DNA of 58,999 nucleotides, taken from contig JADHWH010000003.1 of the NCBI GenBank assembly GCA_016783555.1, positions 1 to 58,999 of the forward strand, given 5' to 3'. The position numbers and the translations under genes were made by a program. This DNA is from Candidatus Omnitrophota bacterium. Its GTDB lineage: Bacteria > Omnitrophota > Gorgyraeia > JABMRJ01. Shown piece after piece: positions 19,074 through 57,338 of the stretch. The first letter of the stretch is position 1, and every line of letters begins with the position of its first letter. The notes below the pieces were generated by a model, which searched no databases, was not told where the DNA came from, and saw nothing but the letters and a program-made list of their open reading frames with translations.

Positions 19074-19535
19074 ATGAAAGCGATTATTTCAAAAGGTATA
19101 GACGGGACTGTAGGGATTGGCGCAAAACTGGGCAGACTGCTTAAGGGCGGCGATGTCGTTGCTTTGGTCGGAGAGCTTGGTTCGGGCAAGACAACCCTTG
19201 TAAAAGGGATAGCAGAGGGACTCGGCGTCAAGGACTCAAGATATGTAAACAGCCCTTCATTTGTGATAATCAAGGAATATAGAGGTAATCTTCCCCTCTA
19301 CCATTTCGACATATATAGATTGGATAGTCCTTCTGACATGGAGACCGTCGGGTATAGGGAGTATTTCTACGCAGACGGGGTGAGCGTCATAGAATGGGCA
19401 GACAAGATTAAAGAGCTCCTGCCGGATGAATATTTAAATATAGAGCTCTCCATAAAAGGCAAAAGCGAAAGAGAGATAAAGATTATTCCCAAGGGGACTC
19501 GATACGACGACCTCTTAAGGAGATTGAAGTTATGA
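19074..19535 (+). CDS. tsaE: tRNA t6A37 biosynthesis ATPase TsaE
   Basis: GELGSGKTTLVKGI P-loop, SPSF.. and YHFDIYRL motifs, ~150 aa. Confidence 0.92.
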   Translation: MKAIISKGIDGTVGIGAKLGRLLKGGDVVALVGELGSGKTTLVKGIAEGLGVKDSRYVNSPSFVIIKEYRGNLPLYHFDIYRLDSPSDMETVGYREYFYADGVSVIEWADKIKELLPDEYLNIELSIKGKSEREIKIIPKGTRYDDLLRRLKL

Positions 19536-19652
19536 ACCCCGTTAGACCTCTAAGAGGTACTGATAGGGTTGACGCTCAGGATTTGTAGGGCAGGTTTAAA
19601 CCTGCCCTACAAATCAGGCAGAAATATAATTGAAAGGAGGTCTAACGGGGTG
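19533..19652 (+). repeat. Stop-to-start palindromic element, copy 1 (tsaE>tsaB); arms separated by an inserted 34-bp perfect palindrome
   Basis: TGA-ACCCCGTTAGACCTC (19533-19550) ... GAGGTCTAACGGGG-TG (19637-19652). A partial proximal partner is CCTC-TAA-GAGG. Confidence 0.85.
19581..19614. repeat. 34-bp perfect palindrome of GTAGGGCA type
   Basis: ATTTGTAGGGCAGGTTT|AAACCTGCCCTACAAAT; every base is self-complementary. Confidence 0.9.
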
Positions 19653-20342
19653 AAGATATTAGCTATCGAGACGTCGACCAGGAATTTAAGCATCGCAGTA
19701 GCGGATGAAAATTCTATATTGGCCGAATATAAGGGTGACTCGGTATTAAGACATTCACAGGACCTCATTCCTAATATAGAGATACTGCTAAAGAAGACCG
19801 GCTTAGGTCTGGCCGATATAGACTGTTTCGCAGTAAGTATAGGACCGGGTTCTTTTACCGGTTTAAGGGTGGGTGTCTCCATTATAAAAGGGCTTAACAT
19901 GGTTACGAATATACCCATAGTTACGGTTCCCACGCTGGATGTCATTGCCTGCAATGTCTTAGATACCCCTACCCCTATATGCGTCATATTGGACGCAAAA
20001 AAGAAAAATATATATAGTTCTTTATACAGAGTTAAAGACGGTGATATAATAAGAACGTGGGATTACCTCCTCGTCCCGCCCGATGAATTAATTGAGAGAA
20101 TAGACGATAAAGACGAAGAGATCTTATTCCTGGGAGACGCCATATCTTTTTACGGAGACCTTATTAGAGAAAGGCTTAAGAACGCAAAATTGGCCGATAG
20201 GAAATACTGGTTTCCGGATGCAAAGAGAGTGGCGCGCCTGGGAAGGAACAAATTTAAGAGAAGAGAGTTCGAAGACGCAGATGGTTTGGTGCCTATGTAT
20301 ATGTATTCAAGAGAATGCAACGTGAGGGGTATCGACAGATGA
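19650..20342 (+). CDS. tsaB: tRNA t6A37 biosynthesis protein TsaB
   Basis: ILAIETSTRNLSIAV...GPGSFTGLRVG. I prefer the GTG start at 19650, directly after GGAGGTCTAACGGG. The TTG at 19569 in the ORF track would translate the intergenic repeat. Confidence 0.88.
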   Translation: MKILAIETSTRNLSIAVADENSILAEYKGDSVLRHSQDLIPNIEILLKKTGLGLADIDCFAVSIGPGSFTGLRVGVSIIKGLNMVTNIPIVTVPTLDVIACNVLDTPTPICVILDAKKKNIYSSLYRVKDGDIIRTWDYLLVPPDELIERIDDKDEEILFLGDAISFYGDLIRERLKNAKLADRKYWFPDAKRVARLGRNKFKRREFEDADGLVPMYMYSRECNVRGIDR

Positions 20343-34788: not shown

Positions 34789-35295
34789 ATGAAAAACATA
34801 GTGCTGGTTGGATTTATGGGGACGGGCAAAACCGTGATTGCAAAGAGCCTTGCCCGCAGATTGAAGATGAGGTATGTAAGCACAGACGATATTATTGAAC
34901 AGAGAGAGAAGAGGCCCATTAGTGATATATTCGCAAAAGACGGAGAGTCTTACTTTAGAAGAGTAGAGAAAAGAATAGTTAAGGAAGTCTCTCTTATGAA
35001 TAATATAGTAGTGGCGGCGGGCGGCGGCGTGGTTATCGATGAAGAAAACTTAAAGGACCTAAAAAAGAGAGGCGTTGTTATATGCTTGAACGCAAGCGCA
35101 GAAGATATACTGGAGAGGACAAAGACTTACGCGCACAGGCCGCTTTTAAATGTTCCCGACCCGCTGGGCAAGATCAGGGAATTACTGAGAGCGAGAGAGG
35201 CTTATTACAAGAGGGCGGATTACCAGATTAACACATCCGGCAGGACCAGAGATGTCGTGATCGACGAAATAGTCAGATTGTTAGAGAGGTTATGA
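34789..35295 (+). CDS. aroK: Shikimate kinase
   Basis: MKNIVLVGFMGTGKT P-loop, ~168 aa. The upstream 33 codons in the ORF track are a translation of palindromic element copy C. Confidence 0.9.
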   Translation: MKNIVLVGFMGTGKTVIAKSLARRLKMRYVSTDDIIEQREKRPISDIFAKDGESYFRRVEKRIVKEVSLMNNIVVAAGGGVVIDEENLKDLKKRGVVICLNASAEDILERTKTYAHRPLLNVPDPLGKIRELLRAREAYYKRADYQINTSGRTRDVVIDEIVRLLERL

Positions 35296-35345
35296 ATCCC
35301 GTTAGACCATTCTAACGGGATTCCATAAAGAGGTCTAACGGGATG
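35293..35345 (+). repeat. Stop-to-start palindromic element, copy 2 (aroK>dprA), T/A variant
   Basis: TGA-ATCCCGTTAGACC-AT-TCTAACGGGAT-TCCATAAA-GAGGTCTAACGGG-ATG. Confidence 0.88.
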
Positions 35346-36455
35346 AAATATAATATCGATGATTTGATACTGCTTAATATGGCGGGCATAGGCTCTGTAA
35401 GGCTGAATAAGCTCATCAGTTTTTTTGGAAGCATAGAGAATACCCTCAAGGCAAGCCAGGCAGATTTAGAGAGGCTTAATGATATCGGTCCTAAGCTGGC
35501 CCGGAAGATATCCAGGATAAGATATAAGGAGGGCCTAAAAAAAGAAGAGGGGCTTATAGGAAAAAACAGAGCCGCGGTCTTGGCTCTCTTTGATGACGCA
35601 TATCCTGAGAACTTAAAAAATATATACGACCCGCCTTTGCTTCTTTATGTGAAGGGCGATATATTGCCGGAGGATAAGATAGCCGTCTCAATTGTCGGCT
35701 CAAGGAAGGCGAGTCTATACGGCATAAATATATGTCAGGAGATTTCACAACAGCTTGCGGGTTTCGGTGTCGCGGTAATAAGCGGCCTTGCAAGGGGAAT
35801 AGACAGCGCCGCTCATAGAGGCGCGCTAAAGTCAGGCGGACGGACTTTGGCCGTATTGGGAAACGGCCTTGATTCTTTATATCCGCGCGAAAATAGAAGG
35901 CTGGCTGAAGAGATCGCCCGCTCCGGCGCTCTCATATCAGAGTTCCCTATGGAGATGCCGCCCATGCGGCAGAATTTTCCTATACGCAATAGGATTATAA
36001 GCGGCCTAAGCCTGGGCGTAGTCGTAGTTGAGGCGGCAAGAAAGAGCGGTGCGCTTATAACCGCCGCCTGCGCGCTCGATCAGGGAAGAGAGGTCTTCGC
36101 TGTGCCGGGCAAGGCCGGCACAGCAACAGCTATGGGTACGCACGGACTGATAAAAGAAGGGGCAAGACTTGCCGAAAGCGCGGATGACATAATAGACGAA
36201 CTGAATCTAGCGCCGATTGGTTTAGACAACACAAGGAGAACTACAAGCGGTAGAGGTATGGGGGATAATATAAACAGAAGAAGCCTGACTAATCCCCAAA
36301 AAAAGATTTATAATATCTTGTCCGATGAGCCTATACATGTCGATGATCTTATAGACAAAAGCACTTTTCCGGCTGTAGAGGTGACAAGGTTACTTTTGGA
36401 ATTAGAGATTAAGAAATTAGTTAGAGAATTACCGGGGAAGAATTTCGTCAAATGA
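35343..36455 (+). CDS. dprA: DNA-processing protein DprA
   Basis: Rossmann-like DprA core (VSGLARGIDSAAHRGAL ... FPIRNRIISGLS) and a C-terminal winged-helix domain. Confidence 0.92.
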   Translation: MKYNIDDLILLNMAGIGSVRLNKLISFFGSIENTLKASQADLERLNDIGPKLARKISRIRYKEGLKKEEGLIGKNRAAVLALFDDAYPENLKNIYDPPLLLYVKGDILPEDKIAVSIVGSRKASLYGINICQEISQQLAGFGVAVISGLARGIDSAAHRGALKSGGRTLAVLGNGLDSLYPRENRRLAEEIARSGALISEFPMEMPPMRQNFPIRNRIISGLSLGVVVVEAARKSGALITAACALDQGREVFAVPGKAGTATAMGTHGLIKEGARLAESADDIIDELNLAPIGLDNTRRTTSGRGMGDNINRRSLTNPQKKIYNILSDEPIHVDDLIDKSTFPAVEVTRLLLELEIKKLVRELPGKNFVK

Positions 36456-44006: not shown

Positions 44007-46145
44007 ATGAACGTACTGCAGATCTTACCGGAATTAAATATCGGCGGAGTAGAAAGGGGCACAGTAGACCTCGCAAGATACCTTATGGCCAATGATCATA
44101 AGGCGGTGGTGGTCTCCGGCGGCGGCAGGCTTGTCAGGGAGCTGGATATGATAGGCGCAAGACACTATCGCCTGCCGGTAGGCAAGAAGTCCCTTATTAC
44201 CATGGCTGGAATGGTCGGCAAGCTCTGCGAGATAATAAAGAGGGAGAACATAGATATCGTTCATGCCCGCAGCAGGGTACCCGGCTGGATAGCCTTCTTT
44301 GCCTGTAAGATTACAAAGAGGCCTTTTATTACGACCGCGCACGGATACTATAAGAATATCTTCACAAGCCAGGTGATGGGCTGGTCCAAATTCGTTATCG
44401 CCGCCTCACACGTAATAGCAAGGCATATGATAGACGGTTTTAAGATTCCCCGCTCAAAGATAAAGTTTATACCGCGCGGTGTGGATCTCAATCGATTCGA
44501 GTTTGGCGAACCGAAAGAAAAAAGGATTAAAAAGAGGGATCTGCCGGGCCTTGCGAGGGACGGCGGCTTTACCGTCGGAGTCATATCGAGATTAACCCCG
44601 ATAAAAGGGCATATATACTTAATAAAGGCGTTGTCTGTAGTATCGAGGATGGTGCCCAAACTTAAATTGCTTATAGTAGGCGAGCCTTCCCCGGGAAAAG
44701 AAGGGTATAAGAGGGAGCTCGAGCTTTTGGTAAGGAGGTTAGGGCTTTCCCAGGTTGTAGAGTTTACGGGATGGAAAGAAGACATACCGGAAGTAATGTC
44801 ACAATTGGATCTCTTGGTACTGCCCAGTGTAACACAGGAGGCGTTCGGCAGAGTCATTATTGAGGCCCAGGCCTGCGGCGTACCTGTTGTAGCGACAAGG
44901 ATAGGCGGCATAGTCGATCTTATAGAGGACGGCGTAAATGGCCTGCTTGTAACGCCTGAAGATATACAGGCGCTTACAGAGTCGATGTTGAAGATCTATA
45001 AAGATCCCGAGTCTGCCCAGAGATTGGCCGTTGAGGCAAGGAGGAATGTCGAAGAGAAATTTTCATTAGATAAGATGGCGCAGAGGACAGTTGATTTGTA
45101 TAAAGAGACAATCGAGTCTCGTAATATACTGGTAATAAAAGTGAGCGCCTTAGGCGATGTAATACTCTCCATGCCTTCGCTTGGCGCTATAAGGTCTAAA
45201 TACCCCAATGCCACAATAAAGGTATTGGTAGGATTGGAATCGCGCCAGGTCTTTAAAGGATGCCCGTATATTGATGAGGTAATAGTCTGCGATTTTAAAG
45301 GCAGGGATAGATCTATGAAGAGTCTTTGGAGATTGGGGGCCCTGTTGAGGAATTCAAACTTTGATATGGTGATAGACCTTCAGAATAACCGGAGGAGCCA
45401 CATACTCGCATTCTTAAGTCTCGCCCCGCTCAGGTTCGGTTACTCAAACGGCAAGCTTTCATTTTTATTGAATAAAAAGGTTGAAGGCCCGAAGGACTAT
45501 ATCGATCCGGTCAGCCATCAGTTCAGGACTTTAAATTTAGCGGGGATAAAGTCAGATAATAAGAGACTAAAGCTATGGCCTCAGGAAGAGGAAGAAGAAT
45601 GGGCCGAGGGTTTTATAAAGGCCAATTGGGTAAATTTATCCAAACAGCGCCTTATCGGCATAAGCCCCAGGGCGAGCAGGCGCTGGTCGAGCAAGAATTG
45701 GCCGGTTCAGAATGTCGCTCTTCTATGCGATGAGCTTGCCCGGAGATTCAATACAAGGGTTGTTATAACCGGCACCAAAGATGACATAAGAGAGGCCCAT
45801 TCTATAAGGTCTATGGCAAAGAGTAAACCTATAATAGCGGCAGGGAAGACCGATATATTGCAATTAGCGGCCTTAATAAAGAGGTGTTCGATATTTATCA
45901 CAACCGACAGCGCTGCTATGCATATAGCGTCCTGCGTAAAGACGCCTTTTATAGCGCTATTCGGGCCTACAGAGCACGAGAGGCACGCGCCTGTATCTGC
46001 GGAGTATACTGTAATCGCCAAGGAACTGAAGTGCAGGCCGTGTTATCGGCCGACGTGCGGCAAGGGCTATAAATGTATGAAGAAGATCAGTGTTGAAGAC
46101 GTCATGAACGCTGTTGAGAGGTATCTGGGATATGAACCCCGTTAG
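44007..46145 (+). CDS. Fusion: GT4 glycosyltransferase plus GT9 (heptosyltransferase-family) domain, copy 1
   Basis: The N-terminal half has the GT4 E-x7-E region (EAFGRVIIEAQACGVPVVATRIGG). The C-terminal half has the GT9 signatures ILVIKVSALGDV and DSAAMHIA...LFGPT. Confidence 0.85.
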   Translation: MNVLQILPELNIGGVERGTVDLARYLMANDHKAVVVSGGGRLVRELDMIGARHYRLPVGKKSLITMAGMVGKLCEIIKRENIDIVHARSRVPGWIAFFACKITKRPFITTAHGYYKNIFTSQVMGWSKFVIAASHVIARHMIDGFKIPRSKIKFIPRGVDLNRFEFGEPKEKRIKKRDLPGLARDGGFTVGVISRLTPIKGHIYLIKALSVVSRMVPKLKLLIVGEPSPGKEGYKRELELLVRRLGLSQVVEFTGWKEDIPEVMSQLDLLVLPSVTQEAFGRVIIEAQACGVPVVATRIGGIVDLIEDGVNGLLVTPEDIQALTESMLKIYKDPESAQRLAVEARRNVEEKFSLDKMAQRTVDLYKETIESRNILVIKVSALGDVILSMPSLGAIRSKYPNATIKVLVGLESRQVFKGCPYIDEVIVCDFKGRDRSMKSLWRLGALLRNSNFDMVIDLQNNRRSHILAFLSLAPLRFGYSNGKLSFLLNKKVEGPKDYIDPVSHQFRTLNLAGIKSDNKRLKLWPQEEEEEWAEGFIKANWVNLSKQRLIGISPRASRRWSSKNWPVQNVALLCDELARRFNTRVVITGTKDDIREAHSIRSMAKSKPIIAAGKTDILQLAALIKRCSIFITTDSAAMHIASCVKTPFIALFGPTEHERHAPVSAEYTVIAKELKCRPCYRPTCGKGYKCMKKISVEDVMNAVERYLGYEPR

Positions 46146-46186
46146 ACCTTATAGGTCTAACGGGGATGAGGAGGTCTAACGAGGTG
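46133..46186 (+). repeat. Stop-to-start palindromic element, copy 3 (GT4::GT9 #1 > #2)
   Basis: TGAACCCCGTTAGACC-TTATA-GGTCTAACGGGG-ATGAG-GAGGTCTAACGAGG-TG. The upstream ORF here stops at the internal TAG (46143-46145). Confidence 0.88.
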
Positions 46187-48343
46187 AACATATTACTGCT
46201 GACCACACATCTTAATATCGGCGGGATTGCCTCTTACATAGTAAACCTGGCCAAGCGCCTGAAAAGAAAAGGCCATAAGGTGGTAGTCTCTTCAAGCGGC
46301 GGCGATATGGTCGATGAATTAACGAAAGAAGACATTCCTCACGTCTATATCAATATAAGGACAAAGTCGGAGCTTAGCCCCAAGCTTTTAATTTCGATGC
46401 CCAAGGTCCTGTCATTGATTAAAGACGAAAAGATAGATGTTATCCACGCCCATACGCGCGTAACGCAGGTATTGGCGTCGGCCGTATCTCGATTGCTTGC
46501 TATTCCGTATATTGCCACGTGCCACGGCTTCTTCAGGCCGCACTTCTCGAGAAGGATATTTAAGTGCTGGGGCGACAAGACGATAGCGATAAGCGATGCC
46601 GTCAAGGCCCATCTTATAGATGATTTTTATCTCAAGCCCGATAATATAGCCCTGATCTATAACGGTGTAGATTTAGAGAAATTTAGAAAAGATATAGAGA
46701 ACAGCCGGAAGGAGTCTCTTAGAAAAAATCTGGGTTTAACAGATAAAGAGAGAGTGGTTATAGGCGCCATAGGCAGATTATCTCCTGTAAAAGGTTATAG
46801 GTATCTAATCGAGGCCTTTAAGAGGCTTATGGACAAAGATAGCGGAGCCTTGCGGCTTTTGATAGTAGGAGACGGCCCTGAAAGAGAATCACTCAAAGCG
46901 CAATGCCTGAGGCTTGGTGTAGATGAGTATGTTAAATTCGCATCACCTAATCCCGATACACCGCTTCTCTTTTCAATTATTGATATATTCGTGTCAAGCT
47001 CCGTGCAGGAAGGGCTGGGGCTCTCTTTAATAGAGGCGCTTGCTTCAGGAAGCCCCGTTGTTGCTACAGACGTAGGCGGTATTAAGAGTGTGGTAAAGGA
47101 TAAAGAGACCGGTATGTTAGTAAGGCCGAAAGAGGCAGGGGCGCTTGCAGAGGGCATCTCGCAACTATTGAAAAGTGCGGATTTGAGAAATAAGTTATCA
47201 AATGAAGGGCGTAAGTATGCGGAAGAAAAATTTGATATAAAGAATATGGCTGATGAAGTCGAAAGGGTATATAAAGAGGTAACGAAAAGAGATCCCCGCC
47301 CCGTAAGACCCGTAGGGTCTAACGGGGCCCGCATACTCATAGTAAATGTTAACTGGCTGGGCGATGTCTTATTTACGACACCCTTTATAAAGGCGATAAG
47401 AAGAAGGTTCCCTGCGAGTTACATGGCTTGTATGGTGGTGCCTCGCTGCAAGGAGATACTGGAGGATAATCCGCGGATCGATGAGATTATAATCTACGAT
47501 GAAAAAGGCAAACACAGAAGCATTATGGGAAAGCTCAAGTTCATTATAACTTTAAAAAGAAAGAACTTCAGCACCGCTTATATACTCCATAGATCCTTTA
47601 CAAAGGCCCTTATGGTATATTTAAGCGGCATAAAGAGAAGGATAGGTTATAATACAAAAAGAAGAGGCCCTCTTCTTACTAAGGCTATCGACGAAACAGA
47701 TCCTGGTATTCATAAAGTAGAATATTTTTTGAAGATAGCGGCTAGCTGCGGCGCGGAAACGGGCGATAAAGATTATGAGTTTTTTGTCAAGAGGCCGCAG
47801 AGAGATAAGATAGACAAGCTTCTCAGAGATAGAGACATAAGGGGGACAGATATTATCGTTGCCTTAAACCCCGGGGGAAACTGGCCTCCTAAGAGGTGGC
47901 CGAAAGAACACTTTGCCGAGCTTGCGGACAGGCTTTCAAGGGAGCTTAATGTCAAGGCGATTATAACAGGCGCGCCTAAAGATTTAAAGCTTGCGCAAGA
48001 TATCATAGATTTATCACAGACCAGGCCGGCAAGTGCCTGCGGTCAGACATCAATAAAAGAGCTGGCCGCCCTTTTGGAAAGATCAAACCTTGTCATATCG
48101 TCGGACTCAGGGCCTATGCACATAGCCTTGAGCGTAAAGACAAAGGTGATTACGTTATTCGGCCCGACATCAGAGGAGATAACCGGCCCGTATGGGAGGG
48201 GTAATTATCTCGTTATCAAAAAAGACGTCGGCTGTCCGGTCCCGTGTTATAATTTTGACTGCAGGGATTATAAGTGCATGAAGGCGGTAACCGTTGACGA
48301 GGTCTTCAATAAAGCGCGGGAGATATTATTTGGCTCTGAATGA
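46166..48343 (+). CDS. Fusion: GT4 glycosyltransferase plus GT9 domain, copy 2 (alternative GTG start at 46184)
   Basis: GT4 region (EGLGLSLIEALASGSPVVATDVGG), then the linker RDPRPVRPVGSNGA encoded by a repeat relic, then GT9 (RILIVNVNWLGDV ... DSGPMHIA..LFGPT). Confidence 0.82.
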   Translation: MRRSNEVNILLLTTHLNIGGIASYIVNLAKRLKRKGHKVVVSSSGGDMVDELTKEDIPHVYINIRTKSELSPKLLISMPKVLSLIKDEKIDVIHAHTRVTQVLASAVSRLLAIPYIATCHGFFRPHFSRRIFKCWGDKTIAISDAVKAHLIDDFYLKPDNIALIYNGVDLEKFRKDIENSRKESLRKNLGLTDKERVVIGAIGRLSPVKGYRYLIEAFKRLMDKDSGALRLLIVGDGPERESLKAQCLRLGVDEYVKFASPNPDTPLLFSIIDIFVSSSVQEGLGLSLIEALASGSPVVATDVGGIKSVVKDKETGMLVRPKEAGALAEGISQLLKSADLRNKLSNEGRKYAEEKFDIKNMADEVERVYKEVTKRDPRPVRPVGSNGARILIVNVNWLGDVLFTTPFIKAIRRRFPASYMACMVVPRCKEILEDNPRIDEIIIYDEKGKHRSIMGKLKFIITLKRKNFSTAYILHRSFTKALMVYLSGIKRRIGYNTKRRGPLLTKAIDETDPGIHKVEYFLKIAASCGAETGDKDYEFFVKRPQRDKIDKLLRDRDIRGTDIIVALNPGGNWPPKRWPKEHFAELADRLSRELNVKAIITGAPKDLKLAQDIIDLSQTRPASACGQTSIKELAALLERSNLVISSDSGPMHIALSVKTKVITLFGPTSEEITGPYGRGNYLVIKKDVGCPVPCYNFDCRDYKCMKAVTVDEVFNKAREILFGSE
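47299..47327 (+). repeat. In-frame relic of the stop-to-start element inside the GT4::GT9 #2 linker
   Basis: CCCCGTAAGACC-CGTA-GGGTCTAACGGGG is translated as PVRPVGSNG, exactly at the GT4/GT9 domain boundary. Confidence 0.75.
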
Positions 48344-48398
48344 TGAACCCCGTTAGACCTCATAAGAGGTCAGCGGGGCGAGGAGGTCTAACGGGGTG
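48341..48398 (+). repeat. Stop-to-start palindromic element, copy 4 (GT4::GT9 #2 > GT9)
   Basis: TGA-TGAACCCCGTTAGACCTC-ATAA-GAGGTCAGCGGGG-CGAG-GAGGTCTAACGGGG-TG. Confidence 0.9.
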
Positions 48399-49376
48399 AA
48401 GATAGATAAAAAAGATATAAAACGAATATTGTTGATTACCCTTACCAATGTAGGCGATATAATCTTGACCACGCCTATTATTGCCGCGCTCGACAAAGCC
48501 TTTCCAGATGCGCGGCTCGATGTCATGGTGGGGCCTCTCGGAAAGAATATATTTATTAATCATCCCGGGGTTTTTAAGGTAATAATCTATGACAAGCATG
48601 TCTCTATTGGCGAGAAGAAACGGCTGGTGCAGAAATTGAAACATATGAAATATGATTTGGTAATAGACCTTAAGAATTCTATGTTTCCCATGCTTATAGG
48701 GTCAAGATACAGAACGAGCCCCTTGCAGACAGTCCCTAAGGATGTCATCCATAAGAGAGATTTTCACTTATGGAAATTAAAATATTTTGATATAGATACG
48801 CGGGATGTTCCGTTTTCCATCCATGTGAGCAGAAAGGACGAGGATTATATAGATTATTTGCTTCGTGACATGCCGAATAAGGATAAGCTGGTTGCTGTAA
48901 GCCCTACGGCGAAGAGCCTGATAAAGAGGTGGAAGAAAAATGGCTTTGCAGAAGTTTGCGACAAGCTTAAGAAGGAACTGGGAGCGACGGTGGCTATGGT
49001 CGGTGATCGATCCGACAGAGAGAGCATTGATGAAATAGCGCGTGACATGAAATCCGACACCGTTAATCTTGCCGGTATGACAACCATACCCCAGCTTGCG
49101 CATCTCATAAAGAATTCCAGGCTCCTTATCTCCAATGACAGCGCACCCATGCATATAGCCAGCGCGGTCGGCACAAAGGTCCTCGCGATCTTCGGGCCGA
49201 CGGACCCGAATAAATACGGGCCCTTGGGCAAAGGCGACAAGGTTATAAAAAAAGAGTTACATTGTTCTCCCTGCGAGATAGCGCAGTGTAAGTTTAAACA
49301 CGAGTGCATGAAACTGATTACGGTTGATGAGGTGTATGAGACAGCAAGGAAGATGTTGGAAGAGACCAGAGGCTAG
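48396..49376 (+). CDS. GT9-family glycosyltransferase (heptosyltransferase-like)
   Basis: RILLITLTNVGDII and NDSAPMHIA..IFGPT motifs, with a GTG start immediately after GGAGGTCTAACGGG. Confidence 0.88.
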   Translation: MKIDKKDIKRILLITLTNVGDIILTTPIIAALDKAFPDARLDVMVGPLGKNIFINHPGVFKVIIYDKHVSIGEKKRLVQKLKHMKYDLVIDLKNSMFPMLIGSRYRTSPLQTVPKDVIHKRDFHLWKLKYFDIDTRDVPFSIHVSRKDEDYIDYLLRDMPNKDKLVAVSPTAKSLIKRWKKNGFAEVCDKLKKELGATVAMVGDRSDRESIDEIARDMKSDTVNLAGMTTIPQLAHLIKNSRLLISNDSAPMHIASAVGTKVLAIFGPTDPNKYGPLGKGDKVIKKELHCSPCEIAQCKFKHECMKLITVDEVYETARKMLEETRG

Positions 49377-51395: not shown

Positions 51396-51400
51396 TTGAA

Positions 51401-51541
51401 TAAATTCGAAATCCGAATATCGAAATCCGAAACAATTCCGAATTTTCAAAATTGTGAATGACCAAAACCAAATGTTTCGAACATTTGAAAATTCGAGTTT
51501 AGAATTTGTTTCGAATTTCGGATTTCGTGCTTCGGATTTAT
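51401..51541. repeat. Heptad-periodic palindromic element, copy E (corA to CNNM1), termini inverted relative to copy A
   Basis: The right end is the exact reverse complement of the copy A left arm (TAAATCCGAAGCACGAAATCCGAAATTCGAAACAAA). The core is in the same orientation as in copy A. Confidence 0.9.
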
Positions 51542-51555
51542 TAAGAGAGTGTTAA

Positions 51556-52542
51556 ATGGCGATTTCCTTCACACTTATAATATTGCTTTTAGGCTCGGCC
51601 TTCTTTTCCGGTTCTGAGACCGCTCTATTCAGTTTAAGCAAGATCAGGGTAAAACGCCTTCAATTAGAAAATACGAAGAATTCAGGACTGCTCGCCCAAC
51701 TCTTAAACAGACCCCGCAGACTTATAATATCCATCCTTATCGGCAATATGCTCGCGAATATCATGGCGTCGACCACCGCTTCGTCTTTTAGTATGAGAAT
51801 GTTCGGGGATAAGGGTATAGGCATCTCCATTGTTTGTATGACTCTTCTGATTTTAATAGTCGGCGAGATAACTCCCAAGGTCATAGCAATACGGAATTCA
51901 GAGAAGATATCGCTTGCCGTTATCCCGTATGTACACTTAGCGTCTAAATTATTTTTTCCGATAAAAAAGATACTCCATCTTATAGTAAATATGCTTACGC
52001 CGCTTTTCGCAGGAAGGATCAAGGCCCAGAGGCTGCGTCTTACCGAAGAAGAGCTTAGGAAGGCCGTTGAGCTCGGAAGAAGAGAGGGCGTCTTGGGCGT
52101 TAGGGAAGAGGAGATGATAAAGGGGGTTTTTAAATTCGGGGATAAGACGGCAAAAGATGTAATAATCCCGCCCAGAAGAATAGTTGCGGTTGATATATCT
52201 ACCCCTTTAAGCACTATCAGATCGATAATCACTAAGAAAGAATTGTCCCGCATGCCTGTCTTTGAGGAAAGGCTGCATAATATAGTCGGCGTACTATACG
52301 CAAAGGATTTAATCATCGCCAGCCAAAAAGGCCCGTTTTCGTTAAGAGAGATACTGAGAGAGCCGTTTTACGTCGATGAGAATATAAAGCTGGACGAGCT
52401 CCTTAAGAAATTCAGGACGCATAGGGTACATATGGCGCTTGTAAAGAACTCTAAGGGCAAACTTTTAGGTTTGGTTACACTGCAGGATCTGCTGGAGGAG
52501 ATAATGGGCCAGATACGGGATATCAAGGAAGGGATTACATGA
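51556..52542 (+). CDS. CNNM/DUF21 plus CBS-pair membrane protein (CorB/CorC-related, lacking the CorC_HlyC C-terminal domain)
   Basis: DUF21 N-terminus (FFSGSETALFSLS), then a CBS pair (..VDENIKLDELLKKFRTHRVHMALV). Confidence 0.85.
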   Translation: MAISFTLIILLLGSAFFSGSETALFSLSKIRVKRLQLENTKNSGLLAQLLNRPRRLIISILIGNMLANIMASTTASSFSMRMFGDKGIGISIVCMTLLILIVGEITPKVIAIRNSEKISLAVIPYVHLASKLFFPIKKILHLIVNMLTPLFAGRIKAQRLRLTEEELRKAVELGRREGVLGVREEEMIKGVFKFGDKTAKDVIIPPRRIVAVDISTPLSTIRSIITKKELSRMPVFEERLHNIVGVLYAKDLIIASQKGPFSLREILREPFYVDENIKLDELLKKFRTHRVHMALVKNSKGKLLGLVTLQDLLEEIMGQIRDIKEGIT

Positions 52543-52594
52543 ACCCCGTTAGACCTCATAGGAGATCAGCGGGGAGGGGAGGTCTAACGGGGTG
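52540..52594 (+). repeat. Stop-to-start palindromic element, copy 5 (CNNM1>CNNM2)
   Basis: TGA-ACCCCGTTAGACCTC-ATAG-GAGATCAGCGGGG-AGGG-GAGGTCTAACGGGG-TG. Confidence 0.9.
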
Positions 52595-53590
52595 AATATA
52601 ATCTTAGGGATTCTTATAATCCTTCTCTGCGTTATATTCGAGGGCTTCTTTGCCGGTTCAGAGATCGGCATCATATCCTGCAACCGCATAAGGATGAGTA
52701 ATCTTGCCGACAGGAAGAATAAAAGAGCGAAGATCATTATCTCTTTTCTGGAAAACCCCGAGGATTTCTTAAGCACTACTCTAGTGGGCGTTAATCTTTC
52801 GGTAATAATAGGCTCTTCTGTGGCGACCGCTTTAGTATCAAGATATGTAAGGCACGCAGGCCATGAGGCTATTATAGCCACAGCGATAATCCTGCCGTTA
52901 GTCCTTATATTCGGCGAAATAGTACCAAAGATTATATATCAGCAGCATTCAGATACGCTGGCGCTTCTCTCCGCGTATCCTTTAAAGATGGCCTCTTTTG
53001 TACTCTTTCCTTTTACCTTCTTTGCCACAAGGATATCGCATTTAGTTTCAAAGATATTTACCAAAGGCAGCGCTAAGAAGAATCCTTATGTCTCGAGAGA
53101 AGAGATACGCCTGCTCTTACTTGAGGCCGCAAAAGACGGCCTGCTGGACAAGGCCGAGATAGACATGACAAGCGAGATATTCGATTTCGGAAGGACAAGC
53201 GTCCAATCTGTCATGGTCCCTCTTAATAAGGTAGTATCCGCCTCTATTCTTTCGAGTACAAAAGATATTATAGAACTCATATCGCAAAGCGGTTTTTCGC
53301 GCATACCTATTTGCAAGGAGAGAGAGGATAATATCATAGGGACAATAGAGATGAGCGATCTGGTTAATAAAGATATAGAAAAGAGAGATCTAAAAAAGCT
53401 GATACTTCCGCCGTACAAAGTAACAGAGGACAGATTGTTAGAGGATATGCTAAAGGATTTTCAGGTTAATGAAGAGAATATGGCCGTAGTAGTCGATAAG
53501 AAAGGCAACGCCATCGGCATTGCCACTATAGAAGATATCATAGAAGAGATCTTTGGTGAAATAGAAGACGAGTATGACGTGAGGAGATAG
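52592..53590 (+). CDS. CNNM/DUF21 plus CBS-pair membrane protein, paralogue 2
   Basis: FFAGSEIGIIS DUF21 motif and a CBS pair, with a GTG start immediately after GGAGGTCTAACGGG. Confidence 0.85.
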   Translation: MNIILGILIILLCVIFEGFFAGSEIGIISCNRIRMSNLADRKNKRAKIIISFLENPEDFLSTTLVGVNLSVIIGSSVATALVSRYVRHAGHEAIIATAIILPLVLIFGEIVPKIIYQQHSDTLALLSAYPLKMASFVLFPFTFFATRISHLVSKIFTKGSAKKNPYVSREEIRLLLLEAAKDGLLDKAEIDMTSEIFDFGRTSVQSVMVPLNKVVSASILSSTKDIIELISQSGFSRIPICKEREDNIIGTIEMSDLVNKDIEKRDLKKLILPPYKVTEDRLLEDMLKDFQVNEENMAVVVDKKGNAIGIATIEDIIEEIFGEIEDEYDVRR

Positions 53591-54592: not shown

Positions 54593-54602
54593 AGAACCAT
54601 TG

Positions 54603-54686
54603 ATTAGTCGTTAGTATTTAGTCGTTAGTATTTAGTCGTTAGTTTTTAGTTTCGTCTAGACGATTACTAACGACTAACGACTAATT
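54603..54686. repeat. TAGTCGTTAGT tandem/palindromic repeat, locus 2 (centre inverted relative to locus 1)
   Basis: Three tandem 14-mers TAGTCGTTAGT(A/T)TT (54605-54646), then the centre TAGTTTCGTCTAGACG, then TAACGACTAACGACTAA. Confidence 0.82.
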
Positions 54687-54700
54687 GCCAGGAGTTAAAA

Positions 54701-55714: not shown

Positions 55715-56442
55715 GAATAATACCGGCCAGATATGGGTCAACGAGATTCGAAGGAAAGGTCCTCGCCGACCTCATGGGCAAACCCGTTATTCAGCACGTC
55801 TATGAAATGGCAAAGAAGGCCAAGACGCTCGATGATCTCATTATCGCCACGGACGACGAGAGGATATATAAGTGTGTCGAGGGCTTCGGCGGCAAGGCCG
55901 TCCTTACTTCCATAGACCAGCCGACGGGGACCGACAGGCTTACGGAAGTCGTAAATCCTATTGATGTTAAGATAATAGTAAATGTGCAGGGCGATGAGCC
56001 CTTGGTGCACTATACCATGATAGATGAATTGGTCAGGACCATGCTGGAAGACGACTCAATAAATATGGCCACAGCAATAAAGAGGGTGGAAGACAAAGAT
56101 GAAATAATGGACCCTAATATAGTAAAGGCGGTCATAGATAAACAGGGTTTTGCTTTATACTTTTCAAGAAGCCCCATACCATTTGAGAGGGGGGCTCAAT
56201 CAAAGAACTTCTATAAGCATTTAGGCATATATGCCTATACAAAAGATTTCCTGTTTACATTTACCAATTTGCCTAAGAGTGACCTGGAAGGTATCGAATG
56301 CCTCGAACAGTTAAGGGCCTTAGAAAACGGATACAAGATTAAAGCCGTGGAGACAAGGTATAACACTATAGGCATAGATACGCCGGAGGACTTAGAGAAG
56401 GCAAGGGAGTTACTCTTAAAGAGAGAAGAGGCTAAAAAGTGA
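55702..56442 (+). CDS. kdsB: 3-deoxy-manno-octulosonate cytidylyltransferase
   Basis: IGIIPARYGSTRFEGKVL and VNVQGDEP motifs. Confidence 0.94.
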   Translation: MEAIGIIPARYGSTRFEGKVLADLMGKPVIQHVYEMAKKAKTLDDLIIATDDERIYKCVEGFGGKAVLTSIDQPTGTDRLTEVVNPIDVKIIVNVQGDEPLVHYTMIDELVRTMLEDDSINMATAIKRVEDKDEIMDPNIVKAVIDKQGFALYFSRSPIPFERGAQSKNFYKHLGIYAYTKDFLFTFTNLPKSDLEGIECLEQLRALENGYKIKAVETRYNTIGIDTPEDLEKARELLLKREEAKK

Positions 56443-56516
56443 ATCCCGTTAGACCTTTTCTAACGGGTTCTGGAAGATGACGAAAAGACAAGATAGCGGG
56501 GAGGTCTAACGGGATG
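56440..56516 (+). repeat. Stop-to-start palindromic element, copy 6 (kdsB>kdsA), T/A variant
   Basis: TGA-ATCCCGTTAGACC-TTT-TCTAACGGGTT ... GAGGTCTAACGGG-ATG. Confidence 0.88.
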
Positions 56517-57338
56517 AAGACAAGGGATGTTAAAGTAGGCAGCATAAAGATAGGCGGAGATAACCCCGTTGTTTTAATCGCAGGCCCCTGCGTAATCGAG
56601 TCAGAGGCCAGCGCCCTGCGCCACGCAAAACGCATAAAGAATATAGCAAAGAAGTTTAAAGTACCTTTCATATATAAGAGCAGCTTTGACAAGGCAAATC
56701 GCACGTCCGTTCACTCTTACAGGGGACCCGGCATAGATAAGGGGCTTAAGATTTTGGGTAGAATAAAGAAGGAATTAAAGATCCCGATCCTTAGCGACGT
56801 ACACTGCCGGCAGGATGTGAAGAAGGCATCAGGCGTAATAGATATAATACAGATACCCGCGTTTCTGTCGAGACAGACAGACCTCATAATAGATGCGGCG
56901 CGGACCGGAATGACAATAAATATAAAGAAGGGGCAGTTCTTGGCGCCCTGGGATGTGGGAAATATCATAGAGAAGGTTGAGGCAGGCGGCAGCAAAAAGA
57001 TCCTCATTACCGAACGCGGCACAAGTTTTGGTTATAATACATTAATAAGCGATTTTCGCTCGATTCCGATTATGAAAAGGTTCGGTTATCCTGTGGTATT
57101 CGATGCAACGCATTCCATTCAAGCGCCCGGCGGTATGGGTAACAGGAGCGGAGGCGATAGAGAGTTTGTAGAGCCGTTAGCTATGGCGTCTGTAGTATGC
57201 GGCGCGGATGCGGTCTTTATAGAGGTTCACGAGGATCCGGATAATGCGTTAAGTGACGGTCCCAATATGCTGTCGTTAAAGAGCCTCGAGAGTTTTTTAA
57301 AAAAGTTAAAGAGACTCGAAGAGATCGCTGTAAGGTGA
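56514..57338 (+). CDS. kdsA: 3-deoxy-8-phosphooctulonate (Kdo-8-P) synthase
   Basis: LIAGPCVIES, KSSFDKANR, IPAFL.RQTDL and DATHS motifs. Confidence 0.95.
   Translation: MKTRDVKVGSIKIGGDNPVVLIAGPCVIESEASALRHAKRIKNIAKKFKVPFIYKSSFDKANRTSVHSYRGPGIDKGLKILGRIKKELKIPILSDVHCRQDVKKASGVIDIIQIPAFLSRQTDLIIDAARTGMTINIKKGQFLAPWDVGNIIEKVEAGGSKKILITERGTSFGYNTLISDFRSIPIMKRFGYPVVFDATHSIQAPGGMGNRSGGDREFVEPLAMASVVCGADAVFIEVHEDPDNALSDGPNMLSLKSLESFLKKLKRLEEIAVR

Follow-up and report, generated by a model that had tools for sequence, protein, structure and literature searches.

The paired arms that frame GTG or ATG start codons at six operon junctions of a Candidatus Omnitrophota contig are best explained, with a probability that we put at about 0.82, as the inverted-repeat ends of a miniature mobile element that inserted at these junctions. 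An earlier sequence-only reading of the same 58,999-nt stretch of DNA, referred to here as the window, had described two variants of a stop-to-start 'clamp' that covary between the base following TGA-A (the stop+2 base) and the first base of the next start codon, and had taken the choice of initiator to be dictated by a helix under selection for pairing. It is very probable instead that a junction has a GTG or an ATG start depending on which element subfamily inserted there.

The motif TGAAYCCCG occurred six times in the window, always on the + strand, compared with 0.89 occurrences expected, and none of 100 shuffles reached six. All six junction copies lie between co-directional genes, as judged from the open reading frame (ORF) listing and Pfam. 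The earlier count of six copies was right for the junctions; a seventh, which consists of the hairpin only, is situated within an ORF. The copies are as follows.

19533-19654, + strand: copy 1, tsaE/tsaB junction; left TGAA 19533-19536 (the tsaE stop), element 19537-19650, right TGAA 19651-19654, GTG start 19650-19652.
35293-35347, + strand: copy 2 (named in the sequence-only reading), aroK/dprA junction; left TGAA 35293-35296, element 35297-35343, right TGAA 35344-35347, ATG start 35343-35345.
46133-46188, + strand: copy 3, junction of two GT4-GT9 glycosyltransferase genes; TGAA 46133-46136, element 46137-46184, TGAA 46185-46188, GTG start 46184-46186.
47295-47331, + strand: in-ORF copy (the seventh), within the second GT4-GT9 gene; 29-nt hairpin-only element 47299-47327, CCCCGTAAGACCC GTA GGGTCTAACGGGG, with flanks CCCG/CCCG.
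48344-48400, + strand: copy 4, GT4-GT9/heptosyltransferase junction; TGAA 48344-48347, element 48348-48396, TGAA 48397-48400, GTG start 48396-48398.
52540-52596, + strand: copy 5, junction of two CNNM/CBS transporter genes; TGAA 52540-52543, element 52544-52592, TGAA 52593-52596, GTG start 52592-52594.
56440-56518, + strand: copy 6, of the T..A type, kdsB/kdsA junction; TGAA 56440-56443, element 56444-56514, TGAA 56515-56518, ATG start 56514-56516.

The copies at 19533, 46133, 48344 and 52540 have a C after TGA-A and end in CGGG-G-TG, giving GTG, whereas those at 35293 and 56440 have a T in that position and end in CGGG-A-TG, giving ATG. Copy 1 has arms ACCCCGTTAGACCTC and GAGGTCTAACGGGGT, and copy 2, also of the T..A type, has arm A TCCCGTTAGACC, internal arm TCTAACGGGA and right arm GAGGTCTAACGGGA. 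The upstream gene had been thought to stop at the TGA of each copy. This does not apply to copy 3, whose upstream ORF ends at a TAG within arm A (46143-46145), or to copy 4, where the stop is the TGA just before TGAA (48341-48343). The in-ORF copy adds 33 nt in frame, corresponding to the 11 residues PRPVRPVGSNG in the linker that joins the GT4 domain to the GT9 domain. Copy 1 also holds a nested and unrelated perfect 18+18 palindrome at 19580-19615.

The element is about 29-115 nt in length, non-coding and multicopy, with seven copies in the 59-kb window and further copies in at least 18 other MAGs (arm scan, one genome per species). Its ends are CCCCGTTAGACCTC on the left and GAGGTCTAACGGGG on the right. 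The left repeat, A, is CCCCGTTAGACCTY (also written CCCCGTTAGACC) and the right repeat, B', is GGTCTAACGGGG, such that copies have the general form TGAA-[C/T]CCCGTTAGACC(TC)...(GA)GGTCTAACGGG[G/A]-TGAA. The minimal form is a 29-nt hairpin alone. The usual three-arm form of ~47-50 nt consists of A, a short loop, an internal arm B, a spacer, GGAGG and B', where B is a copy of the right repeat that is often degenerate. GGAGG is a Shine-Dalgarno (SD) sequence that is carried by the right repeat 9 nt 5' of the start codon. The arms measure 13-15 nt. Five of the six junction copies have arms that are 100% complementary, and the right arm of copy 3 has one mismatch (CGAGG), a C·A. Across 39 distinct arm pairs 93.5% of cells were paired. 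Loops and spacers have diverged completely between copies, and the arms are near-perfect. The copies fall into two lineages, C..G and T..A, both of which are present in several of the genomes, and in most copies the third, internal arm has the base that matches its lineage.

TGAA flanks all six junction copies on both sides. Taking out the element together with one TGAA yields the sequence found in the relatives and restores an (A/G)TGA or TGATG overlap at each of the six junctions, the mark left by a 4-bp target-site duplication. The corresponding loci were compared in relatives whose proteins are 73-92% identical to those of the window overall; the syntenic contigs were reached via protein homologues of CNNM (73-83% identity) and IlvB (85-88%). 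A metagenome scan with the CorA protein gave mostly distant homologues and one useful short contig, L048. Filled sites in the window and empty sites in the relatives (L numbers) were as follows.

tsaE/tsaB: window GTTA-TGAA-element-TGAA-GATATTAGC; empty in L140 (TAATAATGAAGATAC) and L141 (TTATGATGAAGATAC, also written TTATGATGAAGATACTGGCC), filled in L143.
aroK/dprA: window GGTTA-TGAA-element-TGAA-ATATAATATCGATGAT; empty in L140 (TTATGAAATACAATATCGATGAT, also written AATTATGAAATACAATATCGATGAT), L141 (TTATGAAGTATGAT) and L143 (AGATGAAATACAAC); example form TTATGAAAT.
GT/GT (copy 3): window GGATA-TGAA-element-TGAA-CATATTACTGCTGA; empty in L136 (GGGATGAACATATTACTGCTGA), L137 and L138.
GT/heptosyltransferase: window TGA-TGAA-element-TGAA-GATAGATAAAA; empty in L137 (GGGATGAAGATAGATAAAAAAG) and L138 (CGATGAAAATAGATAAAAG).
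CNNM1/CNNM2: window ACA-TGAA-element-TGAA-TATAATC; empty in L138 (CCATGAATATAATTT), L139 (ATTATGAATATATTC), L137 and L048.
kdsB/kdsA: window AAAAAG-TGAA-element-TGAA-GACAAGGGATG; empty in L136 (CCAATGAAGACAAGGGATG, 15 nt identical to the right flank in the window), L137 and L139.

Thus, empty sites were found for 6/6 junctions, and also for the in-ORF copy, which the window and L136 share and L137, L138 and L139 lack. The empty sites hold one copy of the tetranucleotide. The downstream N-termini were the same in filled and empty genomes, confirming the start codons. Occupancy varied among close relatives: L137, L138 and L140-L142 had no copy, L143 had one (tsaE/tsaB) and L136 had two, the in-ORF copy and a decayed one at the CNNM junction. 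This orthologue of copy 5, at about 9948-10001 of L136, has decayed arms and a TTG start, and the gene persists. An exact-protein look-up of KdsB returned the same strain alone, with all copies filled and no strain-level polymorphism. The empty sites and the covarying flank duplications show that the whole block of 47-118 nt arrived as a single unit.

The covariation that was originally noticed was confirmed and acquired a different meaning. The stop+2 base was complementary to base 1 of the start codon in all six window junction copies (four C:G with GTG, two T:A with ATG). Among 55 distinct copies from the window and other genomes the terminal bases were C..G in 34, T..A in 12, C..A in one, T..G in one and other combinations in a few; the pair was complementary in 46 of the 55, and the association was strong (Fisher p = 2.4e-9). 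When the stop+2 base was cross-tabulated against the initiator at stop/start junctions, C occurred with GTG 21 times and with TTG once, T occurred with ATG six times, and the combinations C/ATG and T/GTG did not occur. The 39 distinct arm pairs comprised 25 CG, nine UA, one UG and four unpaired, a covariation score that was reached by no shuffle. These p-values describe association and not a number of evolutionary events; because the copies are not independent events, they overstate the evidence for compensatory evolution. The data show that the two positions involved in the C:G to T:A 'covariation' form the outermost pair of the inverted repeats, which differs between two element lineages. 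The pattern is therefore one of inheritance from these lineages rather than of a change compensated anew at every junction.

Judged against the empty sites, insertion changed the initiator from ATG to GTG at four junctions and from GTG to ATG at kdsA; dprA has ATG both before and after insertion. The proposal that the helix dictates GTG or ATG is correct for base 1, which is set by its helix partner, but the TG of the start is contributed by the target duplication. The A that follows the stop and the T of the start codon, which had been read as a further pair of the helix, are the last and first bases of the duplicated TGAA and lie outside the repeat.

Identical 4-nt flanks were found in 37 of the 55 distinct copies, and 18 had no exact duplication. 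After setting aside copies with TGAA/TTCA on both sides, 15 of 33 had matching flanks, a number that was reached in 0/10,000 permutations (p < 1e-4). The matching flanks other than TGAA included TGAG, TGCG, TAAA, CCCG, CTCG, CAGG and TCCA. Each of the eight duplication types fits Y-N-N-R, which explains the apparent extra 'A:T pair' beside the covarying pair (column 4/37 of the arm alignment). The duplication therefore has a fixed length of 4 bp and a variable sequence. Within the window, (A/G)TGAA overlaps were filled in 6/6 cases and other -4 overlaps in 0/7 (p = 6e-4), the unfilled ones being ATGAG (two), ATGAT (two), ATGAC and GTGAT (two). Duplicating TGAT or TGAG would restore the codons just as well, which points to a genuine TGAA preference of the integration machinery, in addition to selection against insertion elsewhere.

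The same arms and three-arm architecture recur on either strand in Omnitrophota and Planctomycetia MAGs, always co-oriented with the genes. Our scan required both arms within 33 nt and exact 11-nt arms, with one genome per species. It returned 46 loci, a sample in which this exact-arm ascertainment hides decayed copies, from 12 Candidatus Omnitrophota MAGs, six of Planctomycetota lineage, one of Nitrospiraceae and one unclassified MAG, and some of the phylum labels may be binning errors. Matches in Streptomyces, Spirulina, a cyanobacterium, Acidobacteriaceae and Methylobacter had no duplication and had extended stems; these are probably chance hairpins or terminators and were left out of the arm alignment. 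The single match in a scan of viral contigs was a longer, unrelated hairpin. No Rfam 15 family matched the window at gathering score over its whole length, and literature text searches, including one with the arm sequence, returned no description of such an element and no relevant context for the arm sequence.

Terminal inverted repeats, small size, lack of coding capacity, multiple copies, duplications of fixed length at variable sites and empty sites are the features that define a MITE, a non-autonomous DDE-type transposon, and the footprints have each of them. The exception is the parent element; mobility would thus follow from the footprints themselves. In the 1.23 Mb of retrieved loci, neither an autonomous element nor a transposase with such ends turned up; repeat pairs 0.25-5 kb apart enclosed host genes only and were separate small copies. 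As a lead we would take an IS1380/piggyBac-like transposase, which we presume to produce a 4-bp duplication and to act on ends beginning with CC. Substrates of 29-50 nt are unusually small for a transposase. The element is exceptionally small for one with inverted repeats, and its duplication and repeat together regenerate stop, SD and start at gene overlaps.

These features suggest how insertion could leave translation of both neighboring genes intact. In this Omnitrophota genome the element went, with a 4-bp duplication, into the TGAA of (A/G)TGAA overlaps that join the stop of one operon gene to the start of the next. The upstream stop is preserved by the left TGAA, and the right TGAA becomes the TG of a new start whose first base, G or A according to lineage, is the last base of the element; the right repeat supplies the SD sequence GGAGG. 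In the mRNA, the outer helix A:B' would hide the ribosome-binding site. A ribosome terminating at TGA would cover arm A, which starts 1 nt past the stop codon, and would thereby expose the ribosome-binding site. Coupling by reinitiation at the original overlap would thus give way to coupling by RNA unfolding.

Folding predictions were largely consistent with this scheme. In short context the outer helix A:B' was the MFE structure of all six copies, with a probability of 0.01-0.18 that the SD sequence is unpaired, so that in silico the helix sequesters both SD and start as in RNA-unfolding coupling. Copies 2 and 3, whose internal arm is intact, folded about equally into a local A:B hairpin when more context was included, and predicted sequestration of the ribosome-binding site is therefore not uniform across copies. 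We had also considered that B acts as a decoy that pairs with A and keeps the ribosome-binding site open; the predicted folds do not favor this as the dominant structure, A:B' being the MFE in short context and A:B becoming a competitor, once the context is longer, in copies 2 and 3 alone. When arm A was forced to be single-stranded, as if occluded, structure of -10 to -16 kcal/mol was left in copies 2-6; computationally flipped elements kept a hairpin of -20 to -28 kcal/mol over the start region. All 21 junction copies with a recognisable internal arm have the order A-B-B' in the sense orientation (p = 1e-6). Coupling by unfolding would be possible only if the internal arm lies on the 5' side, which would explain this uniformity, although oriented integration could alternatively account for the bias. 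It is plausible from these predictions that the RNA helix is additionally selected as a translational-coupling clamp. Arm mismatches gave no clear excess of G:U over A·C, the events being too few to decide. We give slightly less than even odds to the full proposal that these are 'operon-compatible' nano-transposons of Omnitrophota and Planctomycetota that evolved to colonise stop/start overlaps, in which the TGAA duplication restores the stop along with two of the three start bases, the terminal base completes the start, the inverted repeat doubles as the SD sequence, and the outer helix exchanges reinitiation for coupling opened by the ribosome. If so, the host operon would keep working while the element rewrites its initiator codon and coupling strength.

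Several other explanations were weighed against insertion of a mobile element. Had a regulatory clamp, in the form of an RNA or DNA hairpin, evolved locally at each junction, the change from C:G to T:A would be compensatory under selection for pairing. The frequent complementarity of the terminal pair and the predicted stable helix over the SD sequence and start codon agree with such local evolution, but all six junctions are empty in relatives, the whole block lies between duplicated TGAA sequences, unrelated junctions and other phyla share identical arms of 13-15 nt, and the co-occurrence of both variants within several genomes, each with a matching third arm, marks them as inherited lineages. 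The empty sites largely refute local evolution already, and we regard it as very unlikely. The earlier claim that pairing is selected junction by junction consequently gives way to insertion of one unit. That reading had allowed for pairing at the RNA or the DNA-hairpin level; the latter came near the truth, and the RNA helix is better seen as a predicted consequence of insertion. A palindromic site that is recognized by a DNA- or RNA-binding protein and was co-opted time and again at operon junctions would account for the conservation of a perfect 13-15-bp palindrome in many genomes; it leaves the duplications, empty sites, in-ORF copy and constant abutment on stop and start unexplained, we know of no candidate protein that binds the palindrome, and we find this explanation most improbable. 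The 29-nt perfect hairpin that forms the minimal unit has a size typical of REP sequences, and together with the dominant TGAA flank it could suggest an element of the REP/RAYT or IS200/IS605 (PATE) type that is mobilized as a single-stranded hairpin by a tyrosine HUH transposase, with the flanking tetranucleotide as cleavage site. HUH elements make no target duplication. Here the direct duplications vary between copies of the same arm type (eight types), the single tetranucleotide in empty sites is the signature of a staggered cut, there is no conserved GTAG head, and no RAYT or TnpA gene came to notice incidentally; we consider this type of element unlikely.

The remaining alternative is compatible with insertion and concerns what happened afterwards: the element transposed in, and its arms are now kept because the mRNA helix sets coupling or dosage. 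This is possible, with the odds leaning somewhat against it. The near-perfect arms alongside fully diverged loops and spacers are explained by selection acting on the arms where they sit no less well than by a recent burst. The uniform orientation (21/21) and a helix that begins within reach of a terminating ribosome and covers SD and start are also in its favor, as is the rpmI-rplT pair, in which RNA-unfolding coupling is known at a similar distance of +52 nt (PMC12548453). Against it, the gene persists in L136 behind decayed arms and a TTG start, copy 3 tolerates a C·A mismatch, and the few arm mismatches show no clear excess of G:U over A·C. Intact arms are moreover expected in any case, as only intact copies transpose and the search needed exact arms.

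Like Correia/NEMIS, RUP and MITEAba12, the element has terminal inverted repeats and a short target-site duplication, is non-coding, and occurs as many dispersed copies with presence/absence polymorphism and a hairpin in the transcript. Unlike them, it measures 29-50 nt rather than the usual 100-400, inserts almost exclusively at stop/start overlaps, recreates both codons by its duplication, carries an SD sequence in its repeat, and has a third internal arm and a strict orientation. The nearest conceptual precedent is provided by MIRUs, apparently mobile repeats that likewise sit at start codons between operon genes, where a -4 overlap preserves translation of the downstream gene (PMC12548453). 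MIRUs are direct tandem units with a small ORF overlapping the stop and start of the neighbors, and no inverted repeats or SD-sequestering helix are described for them, whereas each of our copies is one unit bounded by inverted repeats; the copy 2 ORF that begins at the stop-overlapping ATG closes after seven codons, short of the downstream start. The absence of GTAG and the presence of a direct 4-bp duplication set the element apart from REP/REPIN sequences. It also differs from IS200/IS605 derivatives, which use a fixed site without duplication, in that its flanking tetranucleotide is duplicated and varies between copies with identical arms. Repeats that bring along an RBS and an ATG are known from Neisseria (REP2) and Borrelia (IR) (PMC3184786); these provide a promoter and a complete ATG and lack terminal inverted repeats, and neither target duplications nor stop/start overlaps are described for them. 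Rickettsia palindromic elements (RPE) are tolerated as in-frame insertions in protein-coding genes (PMC10969869), as is the 33-nt copy at 47295-47331; RPE are about 100-150 bp long and mainly intragenic, whereas only one of the seven window copies lies in an ORF. With respect to coupling, the E. coli rpmI-rplT pair at +52 nt exhibits RNA-unfolding translational coupling (PMC12548453) and, as in phage MS2 coat/lysis, a helix hides the downstream ribosome-binding site until a ribosome completing the upstream gene opens it, as is predicted here at a comparable spacing of ~50 nt. The rpmI-rplT and MS2 helices are unique to their loci and evolved in place; here a ready-made helix would be delivered to many junctions by a mobile element.

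The results carry a caution for covariation-based discovery of RNA structures, as a strong and compensatory-looking pair arose from copied inverted ends and a target duplication. They also bear on the annotation of Omnitrophota MAGs with respect to start-codon calling, intergenic 'structured RNAs' and gene fusions. The use of GTG or ATG as initiator can be a historical accident of the lineage that inserted, as at the four of six junctions that changed from ATG to GTG. As a natural and portable cassette of ~50 nt, the element lends itself to the study and engineering of translational coupling. If the functional reading holds, a selfish element would survive in gene-dense genomes that have hardly any intergenic DNA by inserting at gene overlaps with its own stop, ribosome-binding site and start.

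A perfect palindrome of 18+18 nt (GATTTGTAGGGCAGGTTT/AAACCTGCCCTACAAATC, window 19580-19615) lies within copy 1, the element at the tsaE/tsaB junction, and is absent from the element at the same junction in L143, a syntenic locus of a relative. The palindrome has the appearance of another hairpin element, unrelated to the first, that inserted into it.

Several compensating changes were found in the arms of the TGAA element, a small inverted-repeat mobile element, at these loci of other genomes:

L029 7257-7323, arm variant
L002 4984-5084, arm variant
L031 5084-5110, arm variant

Complementarity was still full in these variants and the duplication matched. As listed, the first arm pair is CCCGTTACATCTC/GAGATGTAACGGG, the second CCCGTTAGAAAATTT/AAATTTTCTAACGGG and the third CCCGTTAGAAAC/GTTTCTAACGGG, with the GGAGG motif missing from the second and third. 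Other copies consist of the hairpin only and are flanked by CCCG:

L006 1975-2007, GC-rich Planctomycetota MAG
L016 978-1010, GC-rich Planctomycetota MAG
L030 573-599, GC-rich Planctomycetota MAG
Window 47295-47331, in-ORF copy

This flank, common to the Planctomycetota copies and the in-ORF copy, is similar to the element's own end (CCCG-C-CCCG...). It could reflect either a preference for self-like targets or ambiguity over where the element ends.

Two tandem paralogous genes of the window each encode a fusion of GT4 glycosyltransferase and GT9 heptosyltransferase domains, an arrangement kept in all four relatives (4/4):

Window 44007-46145, first GT4-GT9 gene (712 aa)
Window 46184-48343, second GT4-GT9 gene (719 aa)

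The linker of the second gene accommodates an 11-residue insert derived from the element. At the boundary between the two genes in the relative's locus L139 (3536-3735), a run of N lies between copies of a 17-nt direct repeat (AGCAGGGGCGGGATGAA), the left copy of which extends into the palindrome GCAGGGGCGGGA TGAA TCCCGCCCCTGC. This structure can be read as an artefact of a scaffold gap or else as a further insertion into the same TGAA.

In the Omnitrophota MAG VGKK01, the element was found inside a larger multi-copy unit in which TTACAC repeats are abundant:

L010 97-213
L036 3751-3867
L020
L042

Here the element has TTTA/TTTA flanks and the loop CCCAGAAAGCCCCGGCC.., and the repeated entity appears to be a composite of the element and the larger unit.

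In relatives, another palindromic repeat family sometimes sits at a junction where the window has the TGAA element. Such families occupy these operon junctions:

L136 5827-5891 and 6864-6916, GAAGTCCGACTTCC..GGAAGTCGGACTTC
L139 1199-1352, 6915-7009 and 15269-15442, GTCATTGCGAG...GATTGCTTCGCTCG
L138 6835-6940, AAAACGTAAAACCATA....

Two further intergenic spacers of the window consist of short repeats of different kinds, inverted or tandem:

Window 51396-51555
Window 54593-54700

In the order listed, the first repeat set is AAATCCGAA.../...TTCGGATTT, and the second comprises four copies of TTAGTCGTTAGTA opposed by TACTAACGACTAA. A shorter version of the latter is present in the same spacer of L136. 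Several families of palindromic repeat are found between the genes of these genomes.
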